Positions 820-23,140 of a stretch of DNA of 23,140 bases are shown here, piece after piece. The notes under the pieces are model-generated. The model saw only the letters and a program-made list of their open reading frames with translations. It was not told the DNA's origin and did not search any database. The stretch's first letter is position 1; every line of letters begins with the position of its first letter. A program made the translations under genes and the position numbers. Source of the stretch: a virus (taxonomy: Duplodnaviria > Heunggongvirae > Uroviricota > Caudoviricetes); IMG/VR virus record IMGVR_UViG_2869924733_000002. One strand, given 5' to 3'.

Positions 820-862
820 AAAAAGAACAAATGGTAGTGTCCGCTATTGCCAGTACACCTCA
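1..862 (+). mobile_element. IS3-family insertion sequence, right-hand portion (truncated by window start)
   Basis: Transposase ORF ends at 819. The sequence ending at 862 (ggtagtgtccgctattgccagtacacctca) reverse-complements to TGAGGTGTACTGG..., the TG...CA terminus typical of IS3-family inverted repeats. Exact end is approximate. Confidence 0.6.
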
Positions 863-996
863 CACGCCATAACGGACTATATCGTTGGATATTACAGCGC
901 ACTAAGACCGCACGAATATAACGGTGGGTTACCCCCAAACGAATCGGAAAATCGATACTGGAAAAACTCTAACTCGGTGGCCAGTTTTTGTTGACC
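863..996 (+). mobile_element. IS911-like 3' remnant (last ~43 codons of an OrfB plus terminal inverted repeat)
   Basis: In frame from 863: [43 protein letters not shown]-stop, recalled as an IS911-type OrfB C-terminus. 961-996 reverse-complements to TGAAGTGGTCAACAAAAACTGGCCACCGAGTTAGAG, an IS3-family-style terminal IR. The IS600-like element sits inside it. Confidence 0.55.
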
Positions 997-1512
997 ACTT
1001 CAATATGCAACGCCGGGTGGCATGGATAAACCCGGAAGAGAGTAAATCAAACCGCGCAATCGGCGTTGCGCTGAATGATACTGCATGTCGCGTTTTGAAA
1101 AAACAAATCGGGAATCATCACCGTTGGGTATTTGTGTACAAGGAAAGCTGTACCAAACCAGACGGAACGAAAGCGCCAACAGTAAGGAAGATGCGGTATG
1201 ACGCAAACAGTAAGGAAGATGCGGTATGACGCAAACACAGCCTGGAAAGCGGCGCTGAGACGAGCTGGTATTGATGATTTCAGATTTCACGACTTGAGAC
1301 ACACCTGGGCAAGTTGGCTGGTTCAAGCCGGAGTCCCGTTGTCAGGGTTACAGGAAATGGGTGGCTGGGAGTCTATCGAAATGATTCGTCGATATGCTCA
1401 CCTCGCGCCTAATCACCTTACCGAACACGCACGGCAAATAGACTCGATTCTGAACCCATCGGTCCCAAATTTGTCCCAGTCAAAAAATAAGGAAGGTACT
1501 AATGATGTGTAA
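997..1512 (+). pseudogene. Tyrosine recombinase (phage integrase) 3' fragment, truncated by IS insertion and frameshifted
   Basis: Begins directly after the IS911-like IR. Contains the catalytic-domain motifs [16 protein letters not shown] and [10 protein letters not shown] (H-x-x-R and the Tyr nucleophile). The frame switches between track ORFs 924..1229 and 1198..1512 at the 28-bp duplication. Confidence 0.8.
1179..1236 (+). repeat. Perfect 28-bp tandem duplication (2 copies) inside the integrase remnant
   Basis: cagtaaggaagatgcggtatgacgcaaa occurs at 1180-1207 and again at 1208-1235. 28 is not a multiple of 3, so it shifts the frame and produces the repeated peptide VRKMRYDAN in both track ORFs. 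Confidence 0.9.
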
Positions 1513-1738
1513 CTTATTGATTTTTGGGATAATAGGAACAATACACATAGGCGATAAGCTTTGTTTTTGTTGCCTTTTTTATTGTTCATTTTTTATAGAT
1601 ACCCCCAAAAGTACCCCCATATCTTTTTCCGCCCCTGAAATTTGGTTGTTATTCATACAGCATATCAGGCGGTAACGCTCTCCCTTTAACCCACTTATTG
1701 TATGATAGTGCTATCCCACAATAAGGAATCAGCCAGCC

Positions 1739-3554: not shown

Positions 3555-3675
3555 GTTGGTTCAGTTGGTTCAGTTGGTTCAATTTGTAAAGAGTATTGTT
3601 TTTAAAAGAATTATTCGCAAAAAGTGAACCAACACACCCCATTTTTGAACCAACAAAAAGAGGCCGTGAACCAAC
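3555..3675. repeat. Iteron cluster: GTTGGTTCA x3 in tandem plus three inverted copies (TGAACCAAC) at 21-bp spacing
   Basis: Tandem 9-mers at 3555-3563, 3564-3572, 3573-3581. Inverted copies at 3625-3633, 3646-3654, 3667-3675, each 21 bp apart. The same module is present in reverse orientation at 13139-13249. Confidence 0.8.
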
Positions 3676-5342: not shown

Positions 5343-5762
5343 ATGTACCAAATGCCATGTCTTGGATATATGATGATTGCCATTCTAAACAAAGCTAAAG
5401 GGAGGGTTGGTGTGAATGCTCAGGCTGTCATCATGGTTTTCCTTGGTCTGATTGTCGCAAAACTATATCCAGACTGGTGGAAAGGGGCATTAGCAACTGT
5501 CGCCATCTATTTGCTTTTATCCGTCGTTAAGCGATCGTTCGTTAAGACCGTAAATCAAGCAAAACGTTTCTCATTTAAGAATTTAATAAACTATATTACT
5601 GGGCTTATTTTTTGCCTTTCAATTTTGATCGCCTCAGCTTTTTTGCCCGTATCAATAGCTAATTTTTTTGGCGCACCATATGAGGTAGGTTATCTATTCT
5701 CTGTTTTTTGTCTTGTTCTTTCCCTTCTTTACCTATGGATGAGAGCAAAGAACAAAAATTAG
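5343..5762 (+). CDS. Small polytopic membrane protein, AT-rich (candidate superinfection-exclusion or immunity protein)
   Basis: Three to four long hydrophobic segments (VIMVFLGLIVAKL, LATVAIYLLLSVV, ITGLIFCLSILIASAFLPV, LFSVFCLVLSLLYLW). Likely true start is the in-frame GTG at 5412, 5 nt after GGAGGG at 5401-5406. Convergent with the end of the large operon. Confidence 0.55.
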   Translation: MYQMPCLGYMMIAILNKAKGRVGVNAQAVIMVFLGLIVAKLYPDWWKGALATVAIYLLLSVVKRSFVKTVNQAKRFSFKNLINYITGLIFCLSILIASAFLPVSIANFFGAPYEVGYLFSVFCLVLSLLYLWMRAKNKN

Positions 5763-5775
5763 CCATCCATGGCTA
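5751..5775 (-). terminator. Putative intrinsic terminator for the minus-strand operon
   Basis: On the minus strand, a TTAGCCATGGATGGCTAA hairpin (7-bp stem) is followed by TTTTTGT. It lies right after the stop of 5781..7879 and overlaps the stop codon of the convergent gene. Confidence 0.45.
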
Positions 5776-5780
5776 ACCAG

Positions 5781-7879
5781 TTATTGAGCTTCTTTTTGTG
5801 ATGCCTGTGCGACTCTGGTGAGCGATTGTGTGACCGTACTGATCGCTCTGTCATATGCTGTGCTACCTTTTGGCGTATTTGCCAGACGTAACAAGGCATT
5901 TCGTATAACAGGGCTTTCGTATGCCTTCGCTGCTCCGCCTACGGCACCAGCAGCAGGAACAACAAACGCAGCCGTTTTTAGCATCCCCGCTAATACTGCT
6001 GCGTTTATGATGCCACCACCAACTAACAATCCATAAAGCTGCTGACCATTTAAGTTTTGAACGTTCGCTTTTGCCGCGTGTCTTGTATCGTTGAGGTATT
6101 TAATAACGCCGTCCAGTTCCTTTCCATGTACGCCTTTAAAGAAAGTTGCTGATTGCTTCCTGTTCCGGTGTAACGCATTAATAAACTTCTCAACACTGAT
6201 ATTTCCAGACGGATCAGTCGCCTTATCTACAGCATTCTGAACTATGGCTGCTCGTGCGTTTTGCCTACCATTGTCATCCAGAAGCCTGTAAAGCTGAGAA
6301 CGTTCTGATGGGCTTTGGCTAAAAACGAGTTTTGTTACATCCTCAGGCGTGGCCTTGCCGCTGGCTATTGCCTTTTGAACGCGCGTTCTTCCCATCATGT
6401 CATTGAATTTAGACCATGAGCGATCAACCCTTGCCATATTAATGGCTTCGTCTGCTCCAAGATTTTTGGCTACGGCTTTTTTCATATCCGCCGTATATGC
6501 CTTGTAGATAATATCGCTGGCTTTCTGGAGCGTATCTTTATCAACAGTGTCAGATGACGCCATAAATCGCTTTCGAAGATCGGTTCTGTTTTCCCTCGCC
6601 AGACGCAGGTCATTTGGTCCGCTGGTGATATCGTCTTTAAATTGCTGCAAGACTTTTACCGCGGCTCTATCCTGAGATTTGCCCGGGCGGCTTAACACGG
6701 CAATCTGATTGTCGATAGCTTTTACCGTGTTTGAGAGATCGACAGGGGTATCCCCCATAGCGTCAATTATGCGGTTATATCGCTTTCCTGCTGCCTCAAT
6801 GAATTTTTGTTGCCCTTTAGTCGCAGATTCATAAAGCTGTTTATCAGAAATGCCACCCAGACCATCGCTAAATGTTCTGACTAAATTTTCTCGTGCTTGT
6901 TGTTGATTCAGCCGATTCTTACCGGTTCCAAAAAAAGGAACTCTTTCGCCTAATGTCTGAGCCTGACTCTGCATAAAGGTTTTATCTTTCAGCATGTCAC
7001 TGGTCATTAACGGCAGATTTCTTTCCGATGCAAAGTCGACAGCAGCCTTTGCTTCAGGCGACATATCACCACGAACAGCCCTCGAAACCGCACTCGCTGT
7101 ATTTTCCAGCCCCTTACCAATACCACCAATGCCAGCAGAAATTACCGTTTGTAACGGATCAATATCTTCTCCACCAGCAAGGCTGGTGGCTCCCTGTAGT
7201 GCTAAATCTGTAGCTGCTGATTTTCCTATAGCACCAAGCACCGTTCCAGCCCTGCCCACTGGTGTAAACGCCAACGCATTAGCAAGAAACGAAGTCAGGT
7301 CTTGCGGTGATAAACCCGGCTTGTTCAGGGCATAATCACCTGATGGCAGAGAAACGATAGTATTCCCCTTCTCATCCTGCCTTAATGTCGCCCCCATTCC
7401 CTGAAGAATCTTTTCCTGAGACGCGTCAGAGCCGAAAAGTTGAGACCATCCAGCCTTTAGGGCATCCATGCTTAGTGAGTTCAATTCTGGGGCAGAGGTG
7501 ACATTTTGCAGTCTCTCCATCTCTGGAGTCATTCGGCTTTCGCCTGTTATAGCATCGCGCATCGCAGCCCCAAGACTGGCTCCCTGTTCTGCTGAACGCT
7601 CAAGCCCCTCTCTTTGCTGAGTAGCTAACTTTGCATACCCTGACGCAAGAGAATTATCAGATGATGTATGTTGAATATTTTGAGTTGCTGATTGGGATCG
7701 GTCTATTTCATTCGTTGATGGTAGTGGATAGGCAGCATAAAAAGCCTGCTTAGCCTGCTCTACACTTTCTCCGGCTTGCGGGGCAACGACTTCATTGAAG
7801 TATTGCTCCTGAGCCTGCGCTTTTTGTTCTGGTGCTAACGCCTGATACTGTGGAGAGGCGATAACATCTTTCCATGCTT
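5781..7879 (-). pseudogene. Large alpha-helical protein (about 701 aa when reconstructed), cut from its start codon by an IS insertion; DNA-ejection/internal-virion-protein-like (tentative)
   Basis: Track ORF 5781..7562 stays open upstream to 7879. Removing the IS (7882-8797) and one TA copy joins it to ATG GC at 8800-8804, giving MAKAWKDVIASPQYQ... in frame with a TAATG overlap to the upstream gene. Has a hydrophobic Gly/Ala-rich segment near the C-terminus. Confidence 0.6.
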
Positions 7880-7941
7880 TAGGCTGTGTCCCTTAATCAT
7901 CTGAGCTATAGTAACTGTCTGTTTACACAACATATTGAACT

Positions 7942-8391
7942 ATGGCTCGCTACGACCTTCCCGATGAGGCATGGACCATCATCAAGCCCCTGTTACCTCC
8001 TGAACCCGCCACACCACGGGCCGGACGCCCATGGGCTGAGCACCGTAAAATCATCAATGGCATGTTCTGGGTGTTATGTTCCGGTGCACCATGGCGCGAT
8101 TTACCCGAACGATATGGGTCATGGAAAACTGTTTATAACCGCTTTAACCGATGGTCAAAGTCAGGCGTGATTAATATTATTTTCAACAGGTTGCTTTCGC
8201 TACTTGATGCAAACGGCTTTATTGACTGGTCTGCCACCGCGCTGGATGGCAGTAATATCCGGGCGCTGAAATGTGCCGCCGGTGCTCAAAAAAACATCCC
8301 GATATCGACGGAGATAATGGGCCGGGTCGCTCTCGCGGCGGTTTTGGCACCAAAATCCATCTGGCAACAGACGGAAGTGGCCTCCCGTTAA
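7942..8391 (+). CDS. IS5-family transposase OrfA (N-terminal part)
   Basis: MARYDLPDEAWTIIKPLLPP... is the N-terminal domain typical of two-ORF IS5-family transposases. Overlaps OrfB in the -1 frame. Confidence 0.8.
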   Translation: MARYDLPDEAWTIIKPLLPPEPATPRAGRPWAEHRKIINGMFWVLCSGAPWRDLPERYGSWKTVYNRFNRWSKSGVINIIFNRLLSLLDANGFIDWSATALDGSNIRALKCAAGAQKNIPISTEIMGRVALAAVLAPKSIWQQTEVASR

Positions 8392-8786
8392 ATATCGTGC
8401 TAAGCCCCGGACAAGCTCATGAAAGCCAGTTCGCGCAACGACTTCTGGACGGGATTGGCGTTCAGCGTCAGAACGGCAGCATGAAACGCCGTGGACATGC
8501 GGTACTGGCTGATAAAGCGTATTCAGGGCGCGCATTGCGCAACGAGCTGAAAAATAACGGTATAAAGGCAGTAATCCCCCGAAAGTCAAATGAGAAAATG
8601 GCATCGGATGGACGTGCACAGCTTGATCGTGATGCGTACTGCAATCGTAATGTCGTTGAACGGTGCTTTGGGCGGCTGAAAGAATATCGCCGCATCGCCA
8701 CGCGTTACGACAAAACGGCGAGAAATTACCTGGCGATGGTGAAACTGGGCTGCATCCGACTCTTTTATCAACGCTTACGTAATTAA
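8271..8786 (+). CDS. IS5-family transposase OrfB (DDE domain); probably expressed as an OrfAB fusion by -1 frameshift
   Basis: DDE-type motifs (GGFGTKIHLATDGSGLP..., DKAYSG, VERCFGRLKEYRRIATRYDK). An A7 run at 8288-8294 lies in the OrfA/OrfB overlap. Confidence 0.8.
   Translation: MCRRCSKKHPDIDGDNGPGRSRGGFGTKIHLATDGSGLPLNIVLSPGQAHESQFAQRLLDGIGVQRQNGSMKRRGHAVLADKAYSGRALRNELKNNGIKAVIPRKSNEKMASDGRAQLDRDAYCNRNVVERCFGRLKEYRRIATRYDKTARNYLAMVKLGCIRLFYQRLRN
8288..8294 (+). other. Candidate programmed -1 ribosomal frameshift heptamer (AAAAAAA) in the IS5-family transposase
   Basis: OrfA reads caa aaa aac; OrfB reads tca aaa aaa cat, shifted by -1 over the same A-run. Confidence 0.5.
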
Positions 8787-9887
8787 GGGACACAGCCTAG
8801 CCATTAATCACCCCATAGTGAAGAAAAGTTACTGCTGGCTGCTGGCTGTGATACCTGCTCAGATTGCGGCAATGTCTGCGACGAAGAAGAAGTTCCTCTG
8901 TCAACTGCTGAAATAACCCGCAAAGCATCATAAGCTCGACCAGAAGCAGCTTTCAGCGAATTGAACTGGTTTTCCATCTTCCGGCGCTTGGTATCAATGG
9001 TTTTTGTGGAGTCGCCAGGCTGAGGGAAATACATTTGATAATATTTTGACATTTCAGCAGGTGCGATAGCTGCCCCTGTTTCCTGACGGAGTATTGCCAT
9101 TATTGCGTCATTAGCATTAACAACGTATTGCTGCTCTGTTGGGCTGAGCGTTAAGTTAGCCAGCGTCCCATTACCCAAAGCATTATTAATGATCGCCACT
9201 CGCTGTGGGCTAAGCTGGTCTTTCAGTGTATCTATTGAATCAAGAGCATCCCTAACCCTGTATGCAAATCCAGCAGCTTTTTTAGCCCCTTCTGGCGACT
9301 TTTCCATGATCTTTTGGGCTGTTGGCAAAGCTATTGGACGAAACCCATCTCCAGATATTGGCTGGTTTAGTTTTCCCTGCTCTTCACTTCCGTCTGTGTA
9401 GTATTTTGTGACAGTGCCATCATCGTTTTCTCTAACACTCATTAATTTTTTGGCGTTTGTATTAATTCCAGCCGCTGCCGCAAATGCCGCCGCCCCCTCT
9501 GGATCCGCCTTTAACATTTGAGCGTACTGATTGTAATTCTGCATTGCTGCTGTTGGTGCATATGCTGACGTTAACGCATTTGCTCGGCTAATATCCTGCC
9601 CTCTCGCCTGAAGTGCTTCGCCAGCCTGATTGCTGCGGATTGTCTCTGCCAACTTGCCACGCTCAATATCCCGACCTTCCATTTGATCTTTGATATCGAA
9701 ATACTTCTCATGACCGAGAGAAAACAGTGCCATACTACCAGCAAGCCGCTGGAATCCCTGTGGATCATTAACATGCATTTCGGCAACAGACTCAGGAGAA
9801 ATTCCCAAGCGACGCATTTCATCTTCGTTATCTGCTATGAATTTTCCAAATGCCCCAGTTCCGAGCGAAGATGCGATTTGAGCACTA

Positions 9888-11040
9888 AATAGCTGCGCTT
9901 AATACCGCTACACTTTTGCCAGTCCATGTTTGCCTCCGGGGAATGGGCTGACGGTTTCCATAAAATGGCGAACTTTTTTCAACAGTTGCCACATTGAGCG
10001 GCACTGATGATTACGCGTTATTGTGTCGTGAAGTGCCTGCCATAGCCGTTCAACATGATTCACCCATGGCGAGTAAACCGGCTGATAAATGACCCTGAAC
10101 TTCGGGTTCTCCTTCAGCCAGCTCTGTGTTTCCCGGCTTTTGTGGATAATGTAGTTGTCCACGATCAGCGTGATGGTTTTCGCCCGACGGTATGTCGCTT
10201 TAAGCCGCTTCAGCAGGCTGATGAACAGCGCCGAACTTTTGCTGTTGCCGCCCACATAGCTGACTTTACCTGTCCCGCTGTGCAGCGCTCCGGCCAGATA
10301 ATATTTTTCATTCTGTCCCGGCGTGACCACCCGTTTTTGCTGTCCGCGCAGTTGCCAGTCCGCACCGATTTTGGGATGAAGATGGATATCCACTTCATCT
10401 TCATAAAAGACCGGATGCTCTGCGCTGCATTCGTCCAGTGCTTTATGGATTGCTGCCATCTTTTCATCTTTATGCGGGTCACGGATACGCAGAGTTGGCG
10501 CAGCCCTTCGCCACACAATCCCCGCAGACGGCAACCAGCGGCGAACGGTTCCGGCATTTAACTGGCAACCGGTTATCTCATTGATTTTTATTGCCAGCAG
10601 TTCTGTACTCCAGCGTGAACGCTGGTAGCCAAAGTCGCCGGGAGAATGTTTTACCAGCTCACGTAACAGTGTGCAGATATGCTCAAACGGCCAGCGACGG
10701 GCACGCCCGGCAGGTAATGATTTCAGTCCCTCAACACCCGACTGCGTGAACCAGTTAATCCAGCGTCCAACAGAGGAACGGGCGCAGCAGAGCGTTCTGG
10801 CAACGTCGCTGACACGGTCGCCCCGGTGCAGCATCAGCATGGCAGTCAGTCTGCGGGCATAATTTTTATCGTGTGTTTTATGGATGGCTTTCTGCATCAG
10901 GCGTCGTTCGTCACGGGAAATTGGTGCTATGATCGGCATTGCTCAGTCCGGTTGGTGATTTGTTTTGATTTGGCGATTGATCAGATCGCACAATCCGGGC
11001 TAAGTTCCCTCAAAATGATCTACTATTCCGCGCAGCTATT
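9888..11040 (-). mobile_element. IS630 (1153 bp) inserted at a CTAG target with TA duplication
   Basis: Terminal inverted repeats: aatagctgcgc at 9888-9898 and its reverse complement gcgcagctatt at 11030-11040. TA at 9886-9887 and 11041-11042. Length is exactly 1153 bp, matching the recalled IS630 size. Confidence 0.9.
9908..10939 (-). CDS. IS630-family transposase (343 aa)
   Basis: Full-length 343-aa ORF inside the IS630 boundaries, recognised as the Tc1/mariner-like IS630 transposase. Confidence 0.9.
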   Translation of the reverse strand: MPIIAPISRDERRLMQKAIHKTHDKNYARRLTAMLMLHRGDRVSDVARTLCCARSSVGRWINWFTQSGVEGLKSLPAGRARRWPFEHICTLLRELVKHSPGDFGYQRSRWSTELLAIKINEITGCQLNAGTVRRWLPSAGIVWRRAAPTLRIRDPHKDEKMAAIHKALDECSAEHPVFYEDEVDIHLHPKIGADWQLRGQQKRVVTPGQNEKYYLAGALHSGTGKVSYVGGNSKSSALFISLLKRLKATYRRAKTITLIVDNYIIHKSRETQSWLKENPKFRVIYQPVYSPWVNHVERLWQALHDTITRNHQCRSMWQLLKKVRHFMETVSPFPGGKHGLAKV

Positions 11041-11379
11041 TAGTCGCAAGATGACCAATAGAATTTCTCTGGTCGTCATCAATAAAGCCCATCCCTTTCT
11101 GAACGCTTTCAAATTCTTCTGGATACTCAGAAATAAGACTGCGCATTTTGTTTCTGTCTCCAGACTCAAAAGCCCCGGCATATGCTTTCTGAAACTCTGC
11201 TTTACGCTGTTGTTGACGTGCCTGCTGATTAATCTCAGCAACGCCTCTTAGCCCCTGTAGCGCCATTAAACCTACGTTTGGGTGCTGCTGATACTGCACA
11301 GGCTGAGGAACGGAAGAACGAGGAGCATTATCATTTTGCGGTGCCATGCTAGGCAGCCCGCCAAGTTGCCATGTCGCCA

Positions 11380-12057
11380 TTAGAATCCAAGCCCCCCAAC
11401 AAGACCAATAAGCCCACCACCAATAGCCCCGGCGACATTACCTATACCCGGAACAACGGAACCAAGTTGCGCACCCGCTAAAGCGCCTGATGCCGCCCCA
11501 CCAATACCACGCGCAAGACTGGATGGCTGCTGCGCCTGACCTGCACGAATAGCGCCAAGCCCCTGCAAGAGTTGCCCGGTATTATTGGCGTAGTTTTGCC
11601 CTGCTGTTGCCTGCCCTGATGCCGCATTCATCCCGACATTTAGCAGGTTTCCATAATTTTGCATTTGCCCACTGAGCCAATTGTTATAAAGCATGGGCGC
11701 AATGGAAGATAACTGGTTACTGGTAGCTGTTGAGCCAAGCCCCCCGGTAGCTTCTGCTGAGACAAGGTTCTGATAACGGGCCTGATCTGCCTGTGTTTTA
11801 TATAAACCAGAACCAAAGAAATCATTCGCGGCTTTATTCTGCCCTTCCAGAGTCATCAGTCCTTGCAGTTGTTGTAAAGCAGGCAATCCGACTTCTGCAT
11901 ACGGCTTGAGATTATTCATCACCGTATTCCACTGCTCGCGCTGCAAATCAATTGCCTGCTGCTGGGCCTTCGCCTGAGCTTTAGAGGCACCACCATCACC
12001 GCCTTTTTCGTATACGGCACGATTGAGATGTTTATGAGCTATATGGGTAATTAACAT
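11380..12057 (-). CDS. Hypothetical protein (225 aa) with Gly/Ala-rich glycine-zipper C-terminus; ejection-protein-like (tentative)
   Basis: C-terminal ...GIGGAASGALAGAQLGSVVPGIGNVAGAIGGGLIGLVGGLGF. Stop overlaps the next start (TAATG); start overlaps the upstream gene by 7 nt. Confidence 0.65.
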   Translation of the reverse strand: MLITHIAHKHLNRAVYEKGGDGGASKAQAKAQQQAIDLQREQWNTVMNNLKPYAEVGLPALQQLQGLMTLEGQNKAANDFFGSGLYKTQADQARYQNLVSAEATGGLGSTATSNQLSSIAPMLYNNWLSGQMQNYGNLLNVGMNAASGQATAGQNYANNTGQLLQGLGAIRAGQAQQPSSLARGIGGAASGALAGAQLGSVVPGIGNVAGAIGGGLIGLVGGLGF

Positions 12058-12512
12058 TCGCTGAATTCCTTATATTGTTGCCGAGTTAACTGATAAAGCG
12101 TTACGCCGACGGGTTTACCACATCTGATATAAGCATCATCAAGGTGACCAACACGGGTAGCGCCAAGCAAACGGATAATTGCCCGTCCATATTTCGTGGT
12201 GTCAGGAACCATAGTGATGCTGTTAAGGAATGGTGAGTTTTCGAGAAGCCATTTGCAGAATAATCGATGCCCTTGCAGTGCATATTCACCACGGAATCCG
12301 GGGTCGTACACCGCATGGCATTCAACAACGCTATGCCAGAAGTTACGCACTTCATGAACGCCAGCCAGCACTAATCCTTCGTAGATGCCGAGATATACCG
12401 CATCAGGCTTGATGTAGTACGTGTGCCCCGGCTCAACAATATTTTCGGTATTGCCTGGCTCGTTAAGAAAGGCCTGTAATCGCACAGGGTTATCAATAAA
12501 TTTTAGTTCCAT
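12051..12512 (-). CDS. Hypothetical protein (153 aa), first large gene of the operon
   Basis: ATG at 12512 lies 16 bp after the stop of the 53-aa ORF. Protein-like composition; no family recognised. Confidence 0.6.
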   Translation of the reverse strand: MELKFIDNPVRLQAFLNEPGNTENIVEPGHTYYIKPDAVYLGIYEGLVLAGVHEVRNFWHSVVECHAVYDPGFRGEYALQGHRLFCKWLLENSPFLNSITMVPDTTKYGRAIIRLLGATRVGHLDDAYIRCGKPVGVTLYQLTRQQYKEFSEC

Positions 12513-12528
12513 GCGATGCCATCCATTT

Positions 12529-12690
12529 TCACATACAGCCTGCCAGCGCCTTATCTATTAACCCTCGTGCAATTTCATGCAGAGTTGGCGCTACTCCAAT
12601 TCCTGATTTTTTACGCTGCTCTTCCTGAATTTTCTTTATCGCTTCCATTTGCTTCTCACTTATCAATACCGGCTTTACTGAAATAGCCAT
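12529..12690 (-). CDS. Small protein (53 aa), possible ribbon-helix-helix-type regulator
   Basis: Not in the ORF track (shorter than 60 aa). ATG at 12690 is preceded by AAGGGGG. Translation MAISVKPVLISEKQMEAIKKIQEEQRKKSGIGVAPTLHEIARGLIDKALAGCM has a short N-terminal strand followed by helices. Fold assignment is inference. Confidence 0.4.
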   Translation of the reverse strand: MAISVKPVLISEKQMEAIKKIQEEQRKKSGIGVAPTLHEIARGLIDKALAGCM

Positions 12691-13138
12691 AACGCCCCCT
12701 TATAACTGTATAAAACAACAGTTATTATAGTTTCACAAATCGCAATATTCATCATCGTAATTGCAGAATATGAAACAAATAGCACAAAAAAATGCCACCG
12801 CTCAGTAGCTGGTGGCGTCGTTCTGTGTGTCAGGTTTTGACAGGTTTTTTATGGACTCTAAAAACTATATTTATGGTGTCGCATTACTCTTCACGGCAGG
12901 CGCTTTTCAGTTCTGCCCTTGCTTCTGGCTCCATTGGTAATTTGATTCGCGATCAGCTATGCGGATGGTTTGCTGAACAGGCATAACAACTTCTCAGAGG
13001 CTGTTTTTTGAACTACGAAAATTTCGTAGTGCTCACTTTCAAAAACGTCACGCCCTTGTACACAGGATTTTACGAAAGTCTCGTAAAACACTCTCTGATG
13101 CCAGCCAGGTGTTGTGCGCATCAATTCAGTCACATTGT

Positions 13139-13249
13139 GTTGGTTCAAAATACCGTGTTGTTGGTTCAGTGTTGGTTCAATAAAAAGAATAAAATCCTTA
13201 TAAAACAATACCATTTACAAATTGAACCAACTGAACCAACTGAACCAAC
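13139..13249. repeat. Iteron cluster immediately 3' of the primase-helicase gene (crr/ori-like)
   Basis: GTTGGTTCA at 13139-13147, 13160-13168, 13171-13179, then TGAACCAAC x3 in tandem at 13223-13249. Reverse complement of the module at 3555-3675, including an identical core of about 45 bp. Confidence 0.8.
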
Positions 13250-13274: not shown

Positions 13275-16034
13275 TCATTCTTCAGATGAGTTATAATCTC
13301 CTGGCTGGTAATTGAGTACATAAACGTTTATTTGTCGTCCCTGAATACGTGGTGATTTTCTTTGGTATCCACGACCGCTGTTTGGTGGGGTTAGCATCCC
13401 GGCTTTTTTCAACACTTCAGCAAACTGTTTTGCGTTGAAACCACATGCGATCTCCTTTTCAAATGTGGCCGGGAATGTGTAGAAAATCATTGGGCTTTCG
13501 TCATGTTCTCCACGCTGACGGTATCCGGCTAAATCTTTGATGGGCAAATCTGCCGGGCTGTATGGAAATGGTGCAAAACGGCTAAGCCCATAGGCATTAA
13601 GAAATGCCTCCGTTTGTTCAATAATCTGCTGATGTTCTTTGTTACCTGTGCCGAACTCGCGCAACCATGCGTTATAGCTGTGCTGTATCGCATCACGGCA
13701 TGTCTGAGCATCCCAGCCTGTTACAACCTCGCCTAACAGCAATGCGGCCTCCAGAATGGCAAATCGCGCGGCTACACGGTGAACCTGCTCACCATAATCG
13801 GATGGGATCAGGTTTCTCCATCTGCTTTCGCAATCACGAACGGTTTTAATAGCCTGTTGCTGGTGGTCTGCCAGCCATTTAATCCACTCACGCCCGGCTG
13901 CGCCGTGGTGATGCTGGTAAGCGTCTTTCAGTGCGTCTGCGTGCTGTTTTCCGTTCTGGTAATCGTGAAAGCGTACTGCTTTACTCAACGGAATATTCAG
14001 CAGTCGCACCAGTTGCCCGGCTTTGGTTTTTCGCCCGGAAGTAGCGATAAATGTTTCTAAATCCATTTCTCCGGTGCTGATTGCCACTGTACGCCAGCGT
14101 TTTAGATCCCGGTTTCCACCATCTTTAGCGCCTTGCAGTTTCCCTACACCGTTAAATAACGCATAGGCAGACTGTGAAACGCTGACAGGATCAGCGCCCT
14201 GACCAACTTCATCAAGCGGCATTAGTCCGTCATTGTGGGCGGCGGCCTCATTTGCCAGCCCCAGCGCGGTTCCGTACCACGTCAGCCGCAGTAAATCAGG
14301 GTTGCCGTATAAGCTGCTCGCCACGTTTGCCGTGGTGGTCTTACCTGCGCTCGACTGCTCATAGAAATGAATGCCGAACCCGTCAGCGCCCACCAGCCCA
14401 ATCAATGGCGCTGCCAGTGCTGCGCCGATCCCGGTCATCATTGAATAGTTACCAAAGGCCAGACGCGCCACGTTATCACGCCAGCTTTTCGCGCTCCCTG
14501 AGACGGTATATCCGGCTGCGGCTGAGCTTCTCCCGCTGAACAGCACAGGATTTTCAGGTGTTCCGATGATTTCCCCATCAGGCATGATGTACGCTCCGCA
14601 TTGCCAGCCAGTGGCATGAGCAACACGCCACAATTCACGAGAGCCACTGCGTTGTAGCCAGTCTGCCAGTATTGCTCTGAGGCTGCTTTTGGTCGTGACA
14701 TTTACCCCACCAGCTTTAAGTGTGCGCCATCCTTCACGTTCACCAATATCAGCCAGTGGAATGGCAGCGGTTGTCGGCGTTTCAGAACCAAACGACAGCC
14801 AGCGAAGAATGAGATACTGGTCTTTATCGTCTCTGCCAGTACCGATAACGCTTAACGGAGAACATAACCAGCTTTCGTTATTGATGATTTCTCCACTCTG
14901 GCTGTCAGCTCTCGGAGATACCCAATAAATACCATCCTCGCGGCTTTCTATTCTTGGTTTCAGTGGGTCGGTATCCATAACCTTAAAATCGCTTCCCTCA
15001 ATGGTCTGTGGCTCCTGTTTCACGCCATTACCCTGTGGTTGGTACATTGACTTATTGAACGCTTCTGTGGCGCATTTAATGCCGTGTTTTTGGTGGTAAT
15101 CATTCCAGTCTGCTTTGTGATCTGTCGGGGGTAATGCCACCCATCCAGAAACAGATAAAGCTGCTTTTTCTGCTGCTATTCTCCCCGTGTTTTGTCTTCC
15201 TTCGCTGTGGTCGTTATCCGCAGCAATGATGATTTGTGCTGAAGGAAATTTATCCCGCAGTACCTGGGCGACATATAACAGGTTCCCGGCATCAATCGCC
15301 GCCACTGTCAGCGCCTCTGGACGAATTAAATGGGCAGATAATGCCGTTGCCAGCCCTTCTGCGATTAAGATGCTCTGTGTTGTTTCTGGCGCGTTTATGG
15401 CGTGATATGCCCCCCGCTTTGCTGAACCTGTCAGGAGTCTTTTTTCACCATGTGATGTAATAGTCTGTGCTGCTGTGACTGCGCCGGATTTATCCACCAG
15501 CGCCAGCAACAGAGATCCATCGGGCAACACGGGGAATGTAAAATCACCTACCCCTTTCGCAACCAGATAATCAGATTTGCCGTTTACAGCCTTTCTGCGC
15601 ATGTCATCAAACTGACGGGAAAACGTATCCCGTCTTTGTTGTTCGTCCTTCTCTGCCCTTTTCAGGCGCTCCTGTTCGCGTCGCTGGCGCTCGGTTTCCA
15701 GTTGTTCCCGTTTCTGGCTGGTGGCTTCTGGTGTTTCCGTTGTCCGGTAATCAATACCCAGAACATCAGCGGCAAGAAGCGCCGCCTCTGTTGTGTCGCA
15801 GTTATTTACGCGTTTAATTAAATCCAGCCCATCACCAGCGCCGCACTGATTACAGATGAAGCTACCGCGCCCGTTGTCATCGAACCGGAATCGATCTTTG
15901 CCCCCACATGCAGGGCAGGGAGCATGACGGCGCGGAGAGTCAGGGACATTTATGTTCAGGCAGCCCAGCACATGAGGCCAGTTGTTTTCAGACGCACTGA
16001 TAACCTGACGGATAAGATCAATGTTTCGCATCAC
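13275..16034 (-). CDS. P4 alpha-like bifunctional DNA primase-helicase
   Basis: 919 aa. N-terminal Cys-rich zinc-binding motif (CPACGGKDRF...CNQCG), primase-like acidic motif (IIIAADNDHSEG), then a P-loop (EQSSAGKTT) in the helicase part. Start is GTG at 16034 or ATG at 16031. Confidence 0.9.
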   Translation of the reverse strand: MMRNIDLIRQVISASENNWPHVLGCLNINVPDSPRRHAPCPACGGKDRFRFDDNGRGSFICNQCGAGDGLDLIKRVNNCDTTEAALLAADVLGIDYRTTETPEATSQKREQLETERQRREQERLKRAEKDEQQRRDTFSRQFDDMRRKAVNGKSDYLVAKGVGDFTFPVLPDGSLLLALVDKSGAVTAAQTITSHGEKRLLTGSAKRGAYHAINAPETTQSILIAEGLATALSAHLIRPEALTVAAIDAGNLLYVAQVLRDKFPSAQIIIAADNDHSEGRQNTGRIAAEKAALSVSGWVALPPTDHKADWNDYHQKHGIKCATEAFNKSMYQPQGNGVKQEPQTIEGSDFKVMDTDPLKPRIESREDGIYWVSPRADSQSGEIINNESWLCSPLSVIGTGRDDKDQYLILRWLSFGSETPTTAAIPLADIGEREGWRTLKAGGVNVTTKSSLRAILADWLQRSGSRELWRVAHATGWQCGAYIMPDGEIIGTPENPVLFSGRSSAAAGYTVSGSAKSWRDNVARLAFGNYSMMTGIGAALAAPLIGLVGADGFGIHFYEQSSAGKTTTANVASSLYGNPDLLRLTWYGTALGLANEAAAHNDGLMPLDEVGQGADPVSVSQSAYALFNGVGKLQGAKDGGNRDLKRWRTVAISTGEMDLETFIATSGRKTKAGQLVRLLNIPLSKAVRFHDYQNGKQHADALKDAYQHHHGAAGREWIKWLADHQQQAIKTVRDCESRWRNLIPSDYGEQVHRVAARFAILEAALLLGEVVTGWDAQTCRDAIQHSYNAWLREFGTGNKEHQQIIEQTEAFLNAYGLSRFAPFPYSPADLPIKDLAGYRQRGEHDESPMIFYTFPATFEKEIACGFNAKQFAEVLKKAGMLTPPNSGRGYQRKSPRIQGRQINVYVLNYQPGDYNSSEE

Positions 16035-18001: not shown

Positions 18002-19061
18002 TGGTTGCCCCCGTTTTTCCTGGCATTTCGCCACCTTCCAGCAGGAAATGAACGTCACGAACGGCGAGATCCAATATCGCGAGTAACGCCTTCAGTCTTT
18101 CGTCTCGTGAGGGAGAGTTGCTCACCAGAATGTCGTTAATCACTTCTGTCAGTGTGATGATCTGGCTTGTGCGTTCGAGGGGATCCATATGCACATCGTA
18201 GGTTTTAATCATGTGCCACCTCCATGCGGATACGACCAGCAAAAAAGCAGATGTGATCGCGCACCAGAGAACGGCGAGCATCGCGTTCAGACTCGGCAGC
18301 AATATGATGAATTTTGGCGGTAATTGTCGGGCAATCGCGGCGAACTGCGGCGATAATCCAGATAAATTGCGGTTTTTGGGTAGTGGTAGTAGCCAGCATG
18401 TGGCAGCCTCCTTGTACTGGGAGTTCTTCCCACCACCGGAGCTGCGAAACTCGCTGGTGGTGGACTGAACAGAGTTCGCAGTACCGGCGTACAAGGAAAC
18501 CGGCCAGCCTTTCGGCTGCCCTGTCCAGCCCACCATAATTTTGCAAGCGACGCGGATTATAACCGCATCACTGAAAAAAGTGTGAGTCTGGCTAACGGCA
18601 CAAAAAAAGACGCTCGGCGCGTCATGTGTCGCCTCGTACATTTCCGGGCTGCGAAACCCGGCACCCGTTTTATGAGGTGCCTTATAACCATAAACCGTGT
18701 TGCCGCATAACGGCAAGCTCTTTTTTATGGACTCCGAAAACTCACTATTGGAAGCACCAGATGCACAATACATCGCGCTCATTTCGTTAACGTCGCGCGT
18801 GTGGACGAAGGTTTTTGTGGAGTCACTACGCGAGCAGAGAAAGCCATCTACGACCAGAAATTCTCTGGCGCAGCCGCCGACCTTCTCAACGCTAACACCA
18901 TCGACCGTAATTTCTGACATAGTTAAGGCATCCGCTCCCACCACCAGAAAATGATAAACTTTGCTTGTATCTGCTGTATTAATGCCAGACTTTGCTGTCA
19001 TATTGCTGGATTTTGGCGACATACCAGCCAGTGAAAATATCTTCTTCTGGACGGTTAGCAT
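17994..19061 (-). CDS. Gene with a strong start at 19061; the 355-codon open frame has an ambiguous 3' end (see findings)
   Basis: ATG at 19061 with GGAGGT SD, 1 nt after the upstream stop. The N-terminal 150 or so residues look protein-like. The frame then stays open through a terminator-like hairpin (18601-18623), a structured region and an internal SD+ATG at 18212 (MIKTYDVH..., 72 aa). Confidence 0.4.
18205..18399 (-). CDS. Small hypothetical protein (64 aa) in an alternative frame
   Basis: AAGGAGG sits 7 nt upstream of the ATG at 18399 ([19 protein letters not shown]...). Its stop overlaps the internal ATG at 18212. Confidence 0.4.
   Translation of the reverse strand: MLATTTTQKPQFIWIIAAVRRDCPTITAKIHHIAAESERDARRSLVRDHICFFAGRIRMEVAHD
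18601..18623 (-). terminator. Putative intrinsic terminator or attenuator inside the long open frame
   Basis: Minus strand: GACGC-GCCGA-GCGTC hairpin followed by TTTTTTT. A TGA in another frame sits just before it. Confidence 0.35.
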
Positions 19062-19237
19062 TTGTTAACCTCCGCGAACTCCTTCATGAAGCGCGCCAGC
19101 GGTTGTACGCATGGCGATTGATACCCGTCGCGATAAAACGTCACTCGGTTGTGAGACACGCTTTCGACAGTAACGAGTGCTCCGTGGGCATCCTTGTAGC
19201 GTTTTTGAGGTTGTGGTGTTCCTGTCGGCTTAAACAT
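19055..19237 (-). CDS. Small hypothetical protein (60 aa; track ORF 19055..19324 trimmed to the internal ATG)
   Basis: GGAGGTGG lies 4 nt upstream of the ATG at 19237 (MFKPTGTPQPQKRYKDAHG...). The longer track start would overlap the upstream gene by about 95 nt. Confidence 0.5.
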   Translation of the reverse strand: MFKPTGTPQPQKRYKDAHGALVTVESVSHNRVTFYRDGYQSPCVQPLARFMKEFAEVNKC

Positions 19238-20063
19238 GGACCACCTCCAGACGCTTAGCGAGCCAGCGTTGCGACAGGCGGGTGAGTTCTCCTTTGCGCT
19301 GCTCATATTCCATGCCCATATCAATTAACGTGATATTGGTGCTTTCGAGATATGAGAGGTGCTCAAGTTGTTCTGCGTTCATATGGTCGCGAGGTTCGCC
19401 AGAATAGCCATTTATCCGCGCCCACTGCTTAGCAGTTAGCCCACCAAGAACGATACGAGAAATCATATTGCTCTCGTTTGTGTAGTGGTGTTGCTGCGTC
19501 GTTTTCCCCTGCTCGGCACGGGCCATATTCAGCGCATCGCACATTGGCTTAAAGTTGTTTGCGGCACTGATACGGGCTTTTAGCTGGCGACGATAGCGGG
19601 CGGCGATTTCAGGAACGCTACGCTGTAATTCTTCCTCGCACTGGATGAAATAACGGCGGATAGCGCGACCCTGATCATTGCGTTCGATCATTGCCAGTTC
19701 TTTCGCCATTCCGACACTTAACAGATAGTCTTTGCCGGGTCTGCCAGACTGCTTAATCTTTCTGTAAGCCGCGCCATTCGGGCTTTTCCCCAAATTTGGG
19801 GAAATAGTTTTATGGACTGAGTAATCGTGCCCAATGGTGAAGTCATATTCAGAGATGCGATCAGTGATCCATGTAGAGAAGTCTTTTCCCACGCCCAACG
19901 CTTTGTGTAACGCTTTTGCGCTAACAATATTGGTTTCACGCCCACCGATATGACCAGGAATAACCGGGACAATTGCGGCAAATTCATTACCGTTAATTGT
20001 GCTCAGAGAGGCGTTCAGATGAGGGGCGGCCTCAGAAATTAATCTGCTTTTTTCGATGTTCAT
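19230..20063 (-). CDS. Phage antirepressor/regulatory protein-like (Ant/KilAC/Rha-type), 277 aa
   Basis: The block SAKALHKALGVGKDFSTWITDRI ... KDYLLSVGMAKELAMIERNDQGRAIRRYFIQ resembles recalled antirepressor signatures. SD GGAGA before the ATG. Confidence 0.55.
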   Translation of the reverse strand: MNIEKSRLISEAAPHLNASLSTINGNEFAAIVPVIPGHIGGRETNIVSAKALHKALGVGKDFSTWITDRISEYDFTIGHDYSVHKTISPNLGKSPNGAAYRKIKQSGRPGKDYLLSVGMAKELAMIERNDQGRAIRRYFIQCEEELQRSVPEIAARYRRQLKARISAANNFKPMCDALNMARAEQGKTTQQHHYTNESNMISRIVLGGLTAKQWARINGYSGEPRDHMNAEQLEHLSYLESTNITLIDMGMEYEQRKGELTRLSQRWLAKRLEVVHV

Positions 20064-20075
20064 TTTCAGTCTCCG

Positions 20076-20507
20076 TTAAGCGGCGTTAAACGCGTCCGGG
20101 TAGAGTTTCAGAATGTCGGCAATTTCCTGCTGAGAAAGTCCGTTGTGATCATTTATGTTCGCAAGATGGTTAATATGAGTGATCACTTTCAGAACATCAC
20201 CACGGCAGGAGAAACGGTAGCGAAGGTGTGTTCCGATACCATCAGGATTCTTTTCGTCGATACGCTCCAGAGTGATTCCAAGCTGGCGTTCTAACTCTGT
20301 TGCATAGTTACGACCAGAAGACAGACGGCAGTAGCGAAGAATGTCATTTTCTGTCCATCCCTCTATACCAGTACGCAGCATATAGACTCTGGCACGATGC
20401 TTTTTCGGTGTGCGCTTTGGTGCTTGAAGGGATTTTGTAAGGGGCGTAACATCAGATACGCGAATATCTGAATTAGCCGCCTGTAATGGGCGGTTTTTCT
20501 TATTCAT
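20076..20507 (-). CDS. Hypothetical protein (143 aa) with a basic N-terminus
   Basis: Start overlaps the AlpA stop as TAATG. No family recognised. Confidence 0.55.
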   Translation of the reverse strand: MNKKNRPLQAANSDIRVSDVTPLTKSLQAPKRTPKKHRARVYMLRTGIEGWTENDILRYCRLSSGRNYATELERQLGITLERIDEKNPDGIGTHLRYRFSCRGDVLKVITHINHLANINDHNGLSQQEIADILKLYPDAFNAA

Positions 20508-20704
20508 TACGCTACCTCGCCACGCGACTCAGCGATGCGCTGATTAATCCATTCTTCAATTTCACTTTCAATAAACGCAATTGATCGGCTTCCAATCTTT
20601 ACAGATTGAGGGAATCGCTGTTCTTTGATGAGCCGATAAATCCACGCTTTGCTGTAACCAGTACGGCGTTGAACCTCAGAAAGACGAATAAATGATTGAG
20701 ACAT
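20507..20704 (-). CDS. alpA: AlpA-family phage transcriptional regulator / excisionase-like protein
   Basis: 65 aa, MSQSFIRLSEVQRRTGYSKAWIYRLIKEQRFPQSVKIGSRSIAFIESEIEEWI. SD AGGAG upstream. Confidence 0.85.
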   Translation of the reverse strand: MSQSFIRLSEVQRRTGYSKAWIYRLIKEQRFPQSVKIGSRSIAFIESEIEEWINQRIAESRGEVA

Positions 20705-20822
20705 GTTTACTCCTATATTCTGTCATCTTCTTTAATGGACATCAGTAGACAGAAAGGAGATTAAACAAACCGGTGAATGGGTGATAGCGGATAAAAATAA
20801 AATATTTTTTTGAGAAGATTAT

Positions 20823-20857
20823 CCGCTTTGAAATACACAGTAGCGTATTCAAAGCGG
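20823..20857. promoter_or_regulatory. Imperfect inverted repeat (13/14-bp arms) upstream of alpA; putative operator
   Basis: CCGCTTTGAAATAC - acagtagc - GTATTCAAAGCGG. No adjacent T-run on either strand, so it does not look like a terminator. Confidence 0.3.
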
Positions 20858-20901
20858 AAATCGCGAAATTTACTTAAAACGTTTACGTAGGATTTTGCTT
20901 G

Positions 20902-21783
20902 CTATAAATCTCTACTCATTAAATCAGATATTTTTATCAAGCTCATTTCTCTGTCTTTGTTTACATAAAGCTGAAGCAAGCGGGTGTATCTCTCGCTTAT
21001 AGATTCAAGTGCAAAAGGCTTTATTGATTCCTTAATAGCCTGCGTATCTTTCGGATCATCACTAAAAACCAAGGCAGAAATCATCGGATTGCTCACTTCC
21101 TTACCTGACTTCTCACCCCAAATCAGCAGATCAACAATAGGTATCACTCTATTAGATATCAACTTCTGAAGGGTCTTTAATCCAATCCTTTTCTGAGCGA
21201 CATGCTCTCTCTCTGGTACTTTTAACTCTTTTCGCCATAGAGGTAGAAGGTGAGTCAGGCTGGTAATAATTTCGTCATCAGTGGCGTCATCTAAATCTAT
21301 AGAAACGAGTATGATGTTAGGGGAACAATTACTTAGGTTTCCAGTAACACTCGCAAGCATAGCGTTTGCCTTGAGGTAGCAATCCTCTTCGTCTCTTTTA
21401 AAAAAGCCTTGATCTATCGATGAGAAAGAGTACATGGCCAGCTCTGAAAATGTTACTGGACTAACCCCCATAGCTGAAGATAATGAGGGAAGATCATCGT
21501 ACTCATTTCTTAATGATGGGGCTTCATCATTTACTTTGCGAATAAATTCTTCGACCTCTTCCTCTTCTTCATTGAGAATGGTTAGGTTAGGATCGCCCGA
21601 AAAAATCCTTTCATATTTTATATCGTACTCTTCTTTGAATATAGCAGTGTCATCTTTTGCATGACGCAATAAAAAATCGCGCCACTCTAATTCTTGAATC
21701 AAGTCCGGCAAGGTTAAATCATTTAAAAATTCATAATTACTAATATCAAACCATGCTAAATCTTGTTTTTTGGCTCTCACCAT
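20902..21783 (-). CDS. Hypothetical acidic protein (293 aa), AT-rich cargo gene between integrase and alpA
   Basis: Visibly AT-richer than its neighbours. G-rich SD before the ATG at 21783. Acidic stretch ILNEEEEEVEEF. No recognisable family. Confidence 0.65.
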   Translation of the reverse strand: MVRAKKQDLAWFDISNYEFLNDLTLPDLIQELEWRDFLLRHAKDDTAIFKEEYDIKYERIFSGDPNLTILNEEEEEVEEFIRKVNDEAPSLRNEYDDLPSLSSAMGVSPVTFSELAMYSFSSIDQGFFKRDEEDCYLKANAMLASVTGNLSNCSPNIILVSIDLDDATDDEIITSLTHLLPLWRKELKVPEREHVAQKRIGLKTLQKLISNRVIPIVDLLIWGEKSGKEVSNPMISALVFSDDPKDTQAIKESIKPFALESISERYTRLLQLYVNKDREMSLIKISDLMSRDL

Positions 21784-21925
21784 ACGCCACCCCGCGCCCC
21801 TAATTCTGACGGCTATGCCAGCCCGTAGGGGTGTACGGGTTTTCGGGGATCAGCCTAGACATAGCCTATTCTTTGTTCGTCTACATAAGTCTACTACCAT
21901 TGCTTAACACGGTCTATTCATACAG

Positions 21926-23140
21926 TTAAGCTCGTTTCCCAAACGAACCATGAACAACGTTCTCCTCCTTCTCCAGCGCATCCATATAGTCGGCATACCA
22001 TTGAAGCATCTCCCGCCTTCCATCCAGATATTGCGCATGGTTGTATGTGCCACGAATTGAGTTCTTATCAACGTGAGCGAGCTGCGTTTCTATCCACGCG
22101 GTGTTATAGCCCTGCTCATGCAAAATCGTGCTCATAGTGTGCCGGAACCCATGACCAGTTACACGTCCAGCGTAGCCAATGCGCTTAAACACTTGGTTTA
22201 TGCTGGCCTCACTCATTGTTTTCCTTGGATCATTGCGCCCGGGAAACATAAGAGGGTAATTGCCTGTTATTTCTCTAATCTTCCCAATAAGCGAAAGAGC
22301 CTGATCAGACAATGGCACAATATGAGGCCGCCGCATTTTCATACGTGAAGCGGGTATCTCCCAGATAGCCTTGTTGAAATCAATTTCATCCCATAATGCG
22401 CCACGTAGTTCGCCAGTCCGCAAGCCGGTGATAATCAGTAGACGAGCCGCCATAACAACCAATGCGCTTCCTGAGTAACTGGACAATGCCTTGAAAAAAT
22501 CAGGTAATTCTTTAGCTGTAAGGAAAGGGTAATGATTAGATTCATGGCCTTGCATCGCGCTAGTAAGGTCTGGTGCAGGGTTATACTCTGCGCGACCAGT
22601 GACTATTGCATAGCGGAAAACTTCCCCGCACCGCTGCCTCACTTTTTTGGCTTTTTCTGTAGCACCGCGCCCCTCGATGCGCCGCAGCACATTCAGAAGT
22701 TCAAGTGGTTTGATTTCGGCGATTGGTTTTTTGCCAATGTAAGGGAACACATCTTTGTTGAAGGCTTCGAGGATGTCTGAAGCATAACCAGCAGACCATT
22801 TTTTTAATTTGCTGCTGTGCCACTCAAGGGCAATATCTTTGAAGGTGTTGTTTAACTGCGTTTCCCGGGCAATCTTTTCCTCTCGTTTCGCTTCCATCGG
22901 ATCGATACCACCAGCGATACCTCTTTTCGCATCTTCACGTTTTGCCCGAGCATCGGCTAGAGTAACCTCAGGATACACACCTAGTGCCAATAGCTTCTCT
23001 TTACCAGCTACACGATATTTAAGTCGCCAGTATTTACCTCCATTAGGTTTTACCAAGAGATACAAACCGCCACCATCGGCCAGCTTGTAAGCCTTCTCTT
23101 TTGGCTTGGCTGTGTCTATTTGACGGGCATTGAGTTTCAC
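21926..23140 (-). CDS. P4-type tyrosine integrase (N-terminal arm-binding domain plus catalytic domain), 5' end at the window edge
   Basis: N-terminus AKPKEKAYKLADGGGLYLLVKPNGGKYWRLKYRVAGKEKLLALGVYPEVTLADARAKR is the P4-integrase arm-binding signature. Catalytic region has HGFRHTMSTILHEQG and the HAQY tyrosine motif. The GTG at 23138-23140 is probably one codon short of the real start. Confidence 0.9.
   Translation of the reverse strand: MKLNARQIDTAKPKEKAYKLADGGGLYLLVKPNGGKYWRLKYRVAGKEKLLALGVYPEVTLADARAKREDAKRGIAGGIDPMEAKREEKIARETQLNNTFKDIALEWHSSKLKKWSAGYASDILEAFNKDVFPYIGKKPIAEIKPLELLNVLRRIEGRGATEKAKKVRQRCGEVFRYAIVTGRAEYNPAPDLTSAMQGHESNHYPFLTAKELPDFFKALSSYSGSALVVMAARLLIITGLRTGELRGALWDEIDFNKAIWEIPASRMKMRRPHIVPLSDQALSLIGKIREITGNYPLMFPGRNDPRKTMSEASINQVFKRIGYAGRVTGHGFRHTMSTILHEQGYNTAWIETQLAHVDKNSIRGTYNHAQYLDGRREMLQWYADYMDALEKEENVVHGSFGKRA

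Follow-up and report, generated by a model that had tools for sequence, protein, structure and literature searches.

Homologues of the P22 DNA-ejection proteins encoded in an EcCIMP1-type phage-inducible chromosomal island of Escherichia coli

The ejection-protein operon

The stretch of DNA analyzed here (23,140 nt, IMG/VR record IMGVR_UViG_2869924733_000002; hereafter the window) is E. coli-type chromosome. Read on the minus strand from position 12690 to 5781, it carries a 53-aa open reading frame (ORF) followed by homologues of the genes for the DNA-ejection proteins (E-proteins) gp14, gp7, gp20 and gp16 of phage P22, in the order in which the phage has them. A preliminary description of the same DNA had listed minus-strand ORFs of 53, 153, 225, about 473 and about 701 aa and had noted their resemblance to a P22-type DNA-ejection module. 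The ORF calls agree with these sizes once two insertion sequences (IS) are removed, and the profile searches proposed at that time, together with pairwise searches, place all four larger proteins in the gp14, gp7, gp20 and gp16 families.

The 153-aa gp14 homologue (12051..12512, minus strand) matched Pfam DUF2824 (1.5e-61) and PHROG 651 (1e-66), and shares 23% identity with P22 gp14 (BLASTP, E 2e-8) and 84% with gp14 of the helper phage Kapi1. The 225-aa gp7 homologue (11380..12057, minus strand) was assigned by Pfam P22_gp7 (1.9e-72), PHROG 598 and 56% identity to P22 gp7 (BLASTP, E 5e-54), and its E|KGG region aligns with the corresponding region of P22 gp7, which is cleaved by OpdA (PMC8402733). 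For the restored 473-aa gp20 homologue, matches were obtained to Pfam Inj_translocase (3.9e-58) and PHROG 917 (2.5e-112), with 38% identity to P22 gp20 over the N-terminal 239 aa (BLASTP, E 6e-45). The restored 701-aa gp16 homologue matched PHROG 770, 'DNA transfer protein' (2.5e-163), and is 30% identical to P22 gp16 over 478 aa (BLASTP, E 5e-53), and a precomputed match to Pfam PF26808 (Phage_P22_gp16) is recorded on an identical product. Because the copy of Pfam used does not contain the gp16 family, so that P22 gp16 itself scores nothing there, this last assignment was made via PHROGs, BLASTP and the precomputed match. P22 itself has the identical gene order (14, 7, 20, 16), as does Sf6, and its proteins of 229, 471 and 609 aa after a 151-aa gp14 agree with the sizes of about 230, 470 and 610 residues after gene 14 given in the preliminary description. 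No close sequenced phage was found, the best gp20 match being 53% identical (APSE) and the best gp16 match 66% (phage N7); none of the four proteins had a sequence match in the PDB, and an NCBIfam search gave no matches.

Inspection of the sequence with the IS removed showed that the 7/20 and 20/16 junctions read TAATG and that genes 14 and 7 overlap by 7 nt. The coupling formerly ascribed to every junction thus holds for these three, but not between the 53-aa ORF and the gp14 gene, which are separated by a gap of 16 nt. The three large proteins contain no cysteine and are rich in Ala (13-15%), Gln (7-11%) and Gly (8-16%), and the C-terminal tail of the 225-aa protein is Gly-rich and zipper-like, all of which had been described correctly. 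A terminator-like hairpin (5757..5778, minus strand) lies directly 3' of the gp16 stop codon.

Both gp20 and gp16 are interrupted in the window, as was found by alignment to IS-free relatives. An IS630-family element of 1153 bp with a 2-bp target duplication (9888..11040, minus strand), whose transposase at 9908-10939 has DDE_3 and HTH domains, lies inside gp20. It separates a 5' fragment (11041..11380, minus strand; codons 1 to about 113, by alignment to the IS-free strain E. coli EM03-18-08) from a 3' fragment (8804..9887, minus strand), which is 100% identical over 1090 nt to EM03-18-08 (locus L003). An IS5-family element of 915 bp with a 3-bp duplication (7883..8797, plus strand), the ORFs of which have DUF4096 and DDE_Tnp_1 domains, is inserted after codon 2 of gp16; the remainder of that gene occupies 5781..7882 (minus strand), and the intact 701-aa gene starts at 8804. 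Removal of both IS and their target duplications yields 473-aa and 701-aa proteins identical to those of EM03-18-08. The E-gene module of this window is therefore inactive, since gp20 and gp16 carry the two insertions, and its IS pattern was not found in any complete E. coli genome of the collection. A third IS (IS600/IS3 family) lies at window positions 1-1000, which brings three different IS families into 23 kb; the DNA may come from an IS-rich strain similar to Shigella. In IS-free genomes the genes are intact and no head genes flank the module, and genes for capsid, portal, terminase, tail and lysis were found neither in the window nor in the complete element of related genomes, so that the reported absence of head and tail genes nearby was confirmed.

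The 53-aa ORF that opens the operon (12529..12690, minus strand) is specific to satellites. All variants of the island have it ahead of the E genes, as 53 or 57 aa, with a ratio of nonsynonymous to synonymous substitution rates (dN/dS) of 0.13, and its region was detected in 592 of 5426 complete E. coli genomes (about 11%). No match to it was found among 50,697 phage records, which sets it outside the phage module, and Pfam, PHROG and NCBIfam gave no match. A single-sequence AlphaFold2 (AF2) model consists of an extended N-terminus and two helices, for which Foldseek returned no fold match; the model might be taken as a ribbon-helix-helix fold, which is only our own reading of it.

A predicted promoter region (12706..12729, minus strand) precedes this leader ORF, in which a -10 element TATAAT (12729-12724) stands next to a LexA-box-like palindrome CTGT-N8-ACAG (12721-12706), followed by the Shine-Dalgarno sequence and ATG of the leader. 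The copy beside the operon -10 is the sole CTGT-N8-ACAG of the whole window, and both elements are invariant in six diverged satellites whose upstream flanks cannot be aligned; by count alone the palindrome is not significant, as 25 of 100 shuffles contain at least one. These features suggest direct SOS control of the operon, for which LexA would have to bind the palindrome. Between the primase and origin region and the operon, there is a terminator-like hairpin (12794..12809, minus strand), which is kept together with its T-run in diverged satellites. A search of phage genomes for a lambdoid late-promoter or qut-like source of the upstream region gave only short unrelated matches.

On the other side of the module, a 139-aa multi-pass membrane ORF (5343..5762, plus strand) converges on gp16 at the position that sieA occupies in P22. 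It was tried as a SieA candidate and rejected, as the BLASTP comparison gave an E value of 0.95 and the SieA motif FxRYPxEAxxFNK (PMC10883804) is absent, leaving only position and membrane character in common. Family scans gave no match, nor did a tblastn search of phage records. Strain HS13-1 has a complete P22-like prophage to which this ORF, together with gp16, is 93% identical at the nucleotide level over 2.27 kb, which indicates recent exchange.

The carrying island and its relatives

The element that carries the operon is a phage-inducible chromosomal island (PICI) at tRNA-Thr, a close variant of EcCIMP1, and not a prophage remnant. EcCIMP1 is a 19,963-bp PICI of E. coli MP1 inserted at tRNA-Thr between proA and yagU, with the att core TCCTATTATC (Pick, Stadel & Raivio, ISME J 2025, PMC11773190). 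It excises and circularises only with the P22-like phage Kapi1, which transduces it at low frequency (PMC11773190). In IS-free genomes, the element studied here is a 19.7-kb unit next to proA, bounded by a repeat of the tRNA-Thr 3' end with the core GATAATAGGA, which was found at both ends of the unit in EM03-18-08; in the window, the left copy of GATAATAGGA (1528..1537) marks the left boundary of the element and matches the EcCIMP1 core. Of the two possibilities raised in the preliminary description, a satellite-like element or a prophage remnant, the former is therefore upheld by the precise att repeats at tRNA-Thr and a backbone near-identical to that of EcCIMP1, and the latter is not.

The P4-type primase-helicase and integrase noticed earlier beside the module were both found by Pfam. 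The primase-helicase (13275..16034, minus strand) has Zn-ribbon, Toprim and DUF927 domains. The satellite control end (19230..23140, minus strand; profile and Rfam matches) comprises an AntA/B antirepressor (19230-20063), AlpA (20507-20704) and, at the window edge, a P4-type tyrosine integrase (21926-23140), all on the minus strand, and also holds a DUF6387 protein and an int-alpA RNA motif. A C4 antisense RNA (18453-18540) and an isrK RNA (18603-18680) form a P1/P4-type immunity RNA locus (18453..18680, minus strand) with Rfam scores of 81 and 69 bits, which exceed the gathering thresholds. The iteron GTTGGTTCA forms two clusters, both made up of three direct and three inverted copies: one after the primase stop (13139..13249), where it may be the origin, and the other beside PerC (3555-3675); 17 matches were observed against 5.4 expected. 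PerC and a second AlpA-like gene are also encoded on the island. The core features of PICIs are thus present, namely int, alpA and primase in one orientation, a size of about 10-20 kb, and att repeats at a fixed site, whereas the usual absence of structural genes applies only loosely, as P22 has gp7, gp20 and gp16 in its virion.

EcCIMP1 and the window element share the insertion site, the att core and the order int, alpA, antA/B, ash/C4, primase, 53-aa ORF, gp14, gp7, gp20, gp16, alpA_1, PerC and PRiA4_ORF3, and the 53-aa protein, PerC and PRiA4_ORF3 have common accessions in both. The gp14 (98% aa identity), gp7 (about 100%) and integrase of EcCIMP1 differ from the window type by few residues. 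In contrast, its gp20 is only 48% identical to that of the window, over no more than the N-terminal 188 aa, and its gp16 (locus L211, 13481-16201) has 906 aa with an N-terminal SLT lytic-transglycosylase domain that the 701-aa allele does not have, the two gp16 proteins giving no BLASTP match. A different gene follows gp16 in EcCIMP1, and the two inactivating IS are confined to the module of the window. The original study labeled these genes "DNA transfer" or DUF2824 and suggested a packaging role, without recognizing the gp14/7/20/16 set (PMC11773190), and the one further paper found to mention EcCIMP1 contributes nothing on their identity.

Compared to the Lederbergvirus genomes of P22 and Sf6, the cluster of the island has the same four families, order, translational coupling and convergent membrane gene after gene 16. 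In those phages it forms part of the long late operon, where the tail-needle gene 26 precedes it and genes for head and tail surround it, whereas in the island it lies behind primase and origin and is equipped with a promoter of its own, a LexA-like box and the extra 53-aa ORF; some satellites, unlike P22 and Sf6, retain gp20 and gp16 only. Satellite P4 resembles the island in its P4-type integrase, alpha-like primase-helicase, C4/CI-type immunity RNA, AlpA and two iteron clusters, comparable to ori and crr, but its helper is P2 and its cargo consists of capsid-size determinants, as opposed to a P22-like podovirus helper and ejection proteins; no match to sid, delta or psu was detected among the ORFs scanned against Pfam. 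Classical PICIs and SaPIs, as well as capsid-forming PICIs, share the int-alpA-primase core with the island and the helper-dependent excision and transfer with EcCIMP1. They hijack helper packaging via pac or cos, the counterpart of which in the island would be a candidate pac-like 22-mer described below. Known PICIs encode TerS, Rpp, Ppi or capsid genes, and to our knowledge, which includes the literature searches made, none has been described as encoding a DNA-ejection apparatus.

The module is not limited to one island lineage. The operon and its leader were also detected in islands that differ in integrase and insertion site (yicC-dinD), in replicase (DUF5906) and in their gp20 and gp16 alleles, and in two variants the E genes are gp20 and gp16 only. 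Three IMG/VR satellites, with primases only 69-80% identical to that of the window, have all four E genes at full length; among themselves, dS is above 1 (saturated) and dN about 0.1, with dN/dS of 0.04-0.09. Between the thrW-type (L003) and yicC-type (locus L004) islands, dN/dS was 0.29 for gp20, 0.14 for gp16 and 0.23 for the primase. Strong purifying selection maintains the module in diverged satellites, and gp20 and gp16 alleles are swapped between satellites as pairs, with the N-terminal 210-250 aa or so of satellite gp20 conserved and the rest variable. The E module thus belongs to the satellites and is not a one-off remnant. The breadth of this pattern outside E. coli rests on IMG/VR contigs of unknown host, and a scan of species-representative genomes gave one Escherichia locus only.

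Proposed function and competing explanations

In P22, the E-proteins bind procapsids through their N-terminal parts and independently of one another (PMC8402733). P22 virions also function with a complete set of foreign origin; gp7 may be replaced by itself, but gp16 and gp20 have to match each other, and the mutations by which the phage escapes SieA lie in the C-terminal portions of these two proteins (PMC10883804). The restriction of some satellites to gp20 and gp16 and the conserved N-terminal part of satellite gp20 fit these genetics. On balance we favor the view that the region is the E-protein operon of an EcCIMP1-type satellite (about 20 kb) of P22-like phages (Lederbergvirus), which would work as follows. 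In a cell holding both helper prophage and satellite, SOS induction would fire the LexA-box promoter, and the satellite E-proteins would enter helper procapsids via their conserved N-terminal domains. Satellite concatemers would be packaged by headful from a 22-mer that mimics the helper pac. In the next cell, the satellite-specified gp7, gp20 and gp16 would build the trans-envelope conduit for DNA entry, and swaps of matched gp20 and gp16 could shift the range of recipients open to entry, for example to cells under SieA-type exclusion.

The 22-mer is present as two direct copies in every island variant. In the window, copy A, AGTTTTCGGAGTCCATAAAAAA (18721..18742, minus strand), is identical by BLAST to terS nt 143-164 of P22-like phages, including the HS13-1 prophage (L005) and pEM03-18-08_2 (L009), the P22-like phage vB_EcoP-720R6 also having AGTTTTCGGAGTCCATAAAAAA in its terS, and copy B (12845..12866, minus strand), with 2 mismatches, lies just upstream of the terminator and operon promoter. 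The annotated pac of P22 is likewise a 22-bp sequence within terS. A TerS-based locus search gave only 99-100% identical copies, and five distant TerS genes were substituted for the conservation test: of the four suited to the comparison, three (Pseudomonas, Acinetobacter and Riemerella phages) retain, at the corresponding position, CCATAAAAA and its ATA codon, a codon that is rare in E. coli and Pseudomonas, while the Vibrio phage gene does not contain CCATAAAAA and the fifth homologue was not scored. The 22-mer is absent from Kapi1, whose TerS is of the Sf6 type; EcCIMP1 shares no DNA with Kapi1 terS, gp14 being the only DNA shared with this phage. These absences fit the very low transduction by Kapi1 and the occurrence of a Kapi1-like prophage in only 2 of 21 EcCIMP1 strains (PMC11773190). 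Judged from sequence, the 22-mer is a candidate pac mimic that would point to helpers other than Kapi1. The strain EM03-18-08 holds an intact island together with pEM03-18-08_2 (NZ_CP063485.1), and this 39,096-bp 'plasmid' is a complete P22-like phage genome with a motif-type terS.

A more far-reaching version of the proposal is offered tentatively, as one less likely than not to be right: the module would be a portable, SOS-timed ejection apparatus, in which matched gp20 and gp16, with or without gp14 and gp7, placed in stolen P22-like capsids decide which cells can be entered, notably helper lysogens or cells with SieA-type protection; the alleles would be traded with phages in an arms race, the 22-mer would act as a pac mimic, and the efficient helpers would be phages with KFSESIKK-type TerS rather than Kapi1. 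If true, such a helper preference would explain the very low transfer of EcCIMP1 by Kapi1. What phage satellites are known to take from their helpers is capsids, tails and packaging enzymes; if a satellite supplied the machinery for DNA entry itself, satellite-helper biology would gain a further layer, in which delivery instead of assembly is controlled. The selection on the module, the swapping of gp20 and gp16 pairs, the LexA-box-like operon promoter and the 22-mer identical to terS were not found in the searchable literature. The family is common in E. coli (about 11% of complete genomes, by the leader region) and one member is experimentally tractable. For the window itself the practical message is modest, as the element is an IS-inactivated variant of an island type that has already been described.

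Several points weigh against the proposed role in delivery. It is from homology and context that we infer the presence of satellite E-proteins in virions and a need for them in transfer. With Kapi1 as helper, no benefit of the module is visible: the Kapi1 titre is unchanged with or without EcCIMP1, and transduction is very low (PMC11773190). The E genes are broken not only in the window but also in some other strains (a frameshift in 6409, IS66 in 22AR0118), which means that their loss is tolerated in the host. The palindrome at the promoter is a single pattern match and could alternatively be the operator of the 53-aa protein. The pac reading would follow from position and conservation only, and the conservation of the 22-mer in terS could stem largely from the conserved peptide KFSESIKK; its occurrence in more than 100 IMG/VR phage terS genes, some only 38-72% identical in protein, is a biased count, because the scan selects for the motif (ascertainment).

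Other explanations were considered for the same genes. One is superinfection exclusion by decoy, in which the E-proteins or the adjacent membrane ORF, made in the resident cell, would block the DNA conduit of incoming P22-like phages and so protect host and satellite. The failure of mismatched gp16/gp20 combinations in P22 (PMC10883804) and the membrane ORF at the sieA position would suit such a role. However, E-proteins, once ejected, normally work on the cell from outside and not from its cytoplasm; in uninduced cells the operon would be kept silent by the candidate LexA box, and EcCIMP1 carries another gene where sieA would be expected, so that we regard this explanation as unlikely. Slightly less likely still is interference with the helper, whereby satellite E-proteins would compete with those of the helper, or mismatch them, and make helper virions less infectious. 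Interference with the helper is usual among satellites, P22 particles in which just one member of the gp16/gp20 pair is foreign are not infectious, and the satellite alleles are strongly unlike those of co-resident or known helpers; but the titres of Kapi1 from induced lysogens are not changed by EcCIMP1, and particles containing satellite DNA would be poisoned too.

The packaging or capsid-morphogenesis role suggested by Pick et al., in which the proteins would steer helper packaging to the satellite, appears improbable. It is true that the operon occupies the post-primase position where other PICIs keep packaging genes (PMC11773190) and that PHROGs label the gp14 family 'head morphogenesis', but P22 assembles and packages its DNA without the homologous proteins, which act when the DNA enters the cell (PMC10883804, PMC8402733), and no TerS, Rpp, Ppi or Sid-like protein was detected in family scans. 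The least probable explanation, by which the genes are a functionless leftover of a degraded P22-like prophage that came to adjoin a P4-type island by chance, could draw on the IS-disrupted genes of the window, the frameshifted and IS66-disrupted copies elsewhere and the 93% identity of part of gp16 and the neighbouring ORF to a complete prophage, but is contradicted for the satellite family, though the copy in the window is dead, by precise att boundaries that enclose the module, its own promoter and satellite-only leader ORF, the recurrence of the architecture with different integrases and replicases, intact ORFs with dN/dS of 0.04-0.09 at saturated dS, and the experimentally demonstrated mobility of the sibling element EcCIMP1.

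Other features of the island

An ORF annotated as 'ash family protein' (17994-19061) has the C4 and isrK RNAs beneath its Pfam Phage_ASH match, and what was called as a protein may be an RNA locus that has been translated. The ash locus of MP1 is followed by an Icd-like ORF, which resembles the c4-icd arrangement of P1.

In the accessory region, PADLOC found nothing for the accessory ORFs of the window, its only match being AbiD in the yicC-site variant. There, an AbiD-family abortive-infection gene (L004, 12707-13669) takes the place held in the window variant by PRiA4_ORF3 and unknown ORFs. The accessory end also contains three copies of a 28-nt repeat, CGCGCGCGTACTTGTC.CGAAATACCAG, located in the EM03-18-08 island at 10174-10201, 11917-11944 and 12204-12231 (L003 coordinates), which fall at about 3180, 4920 and 5210 in the window.

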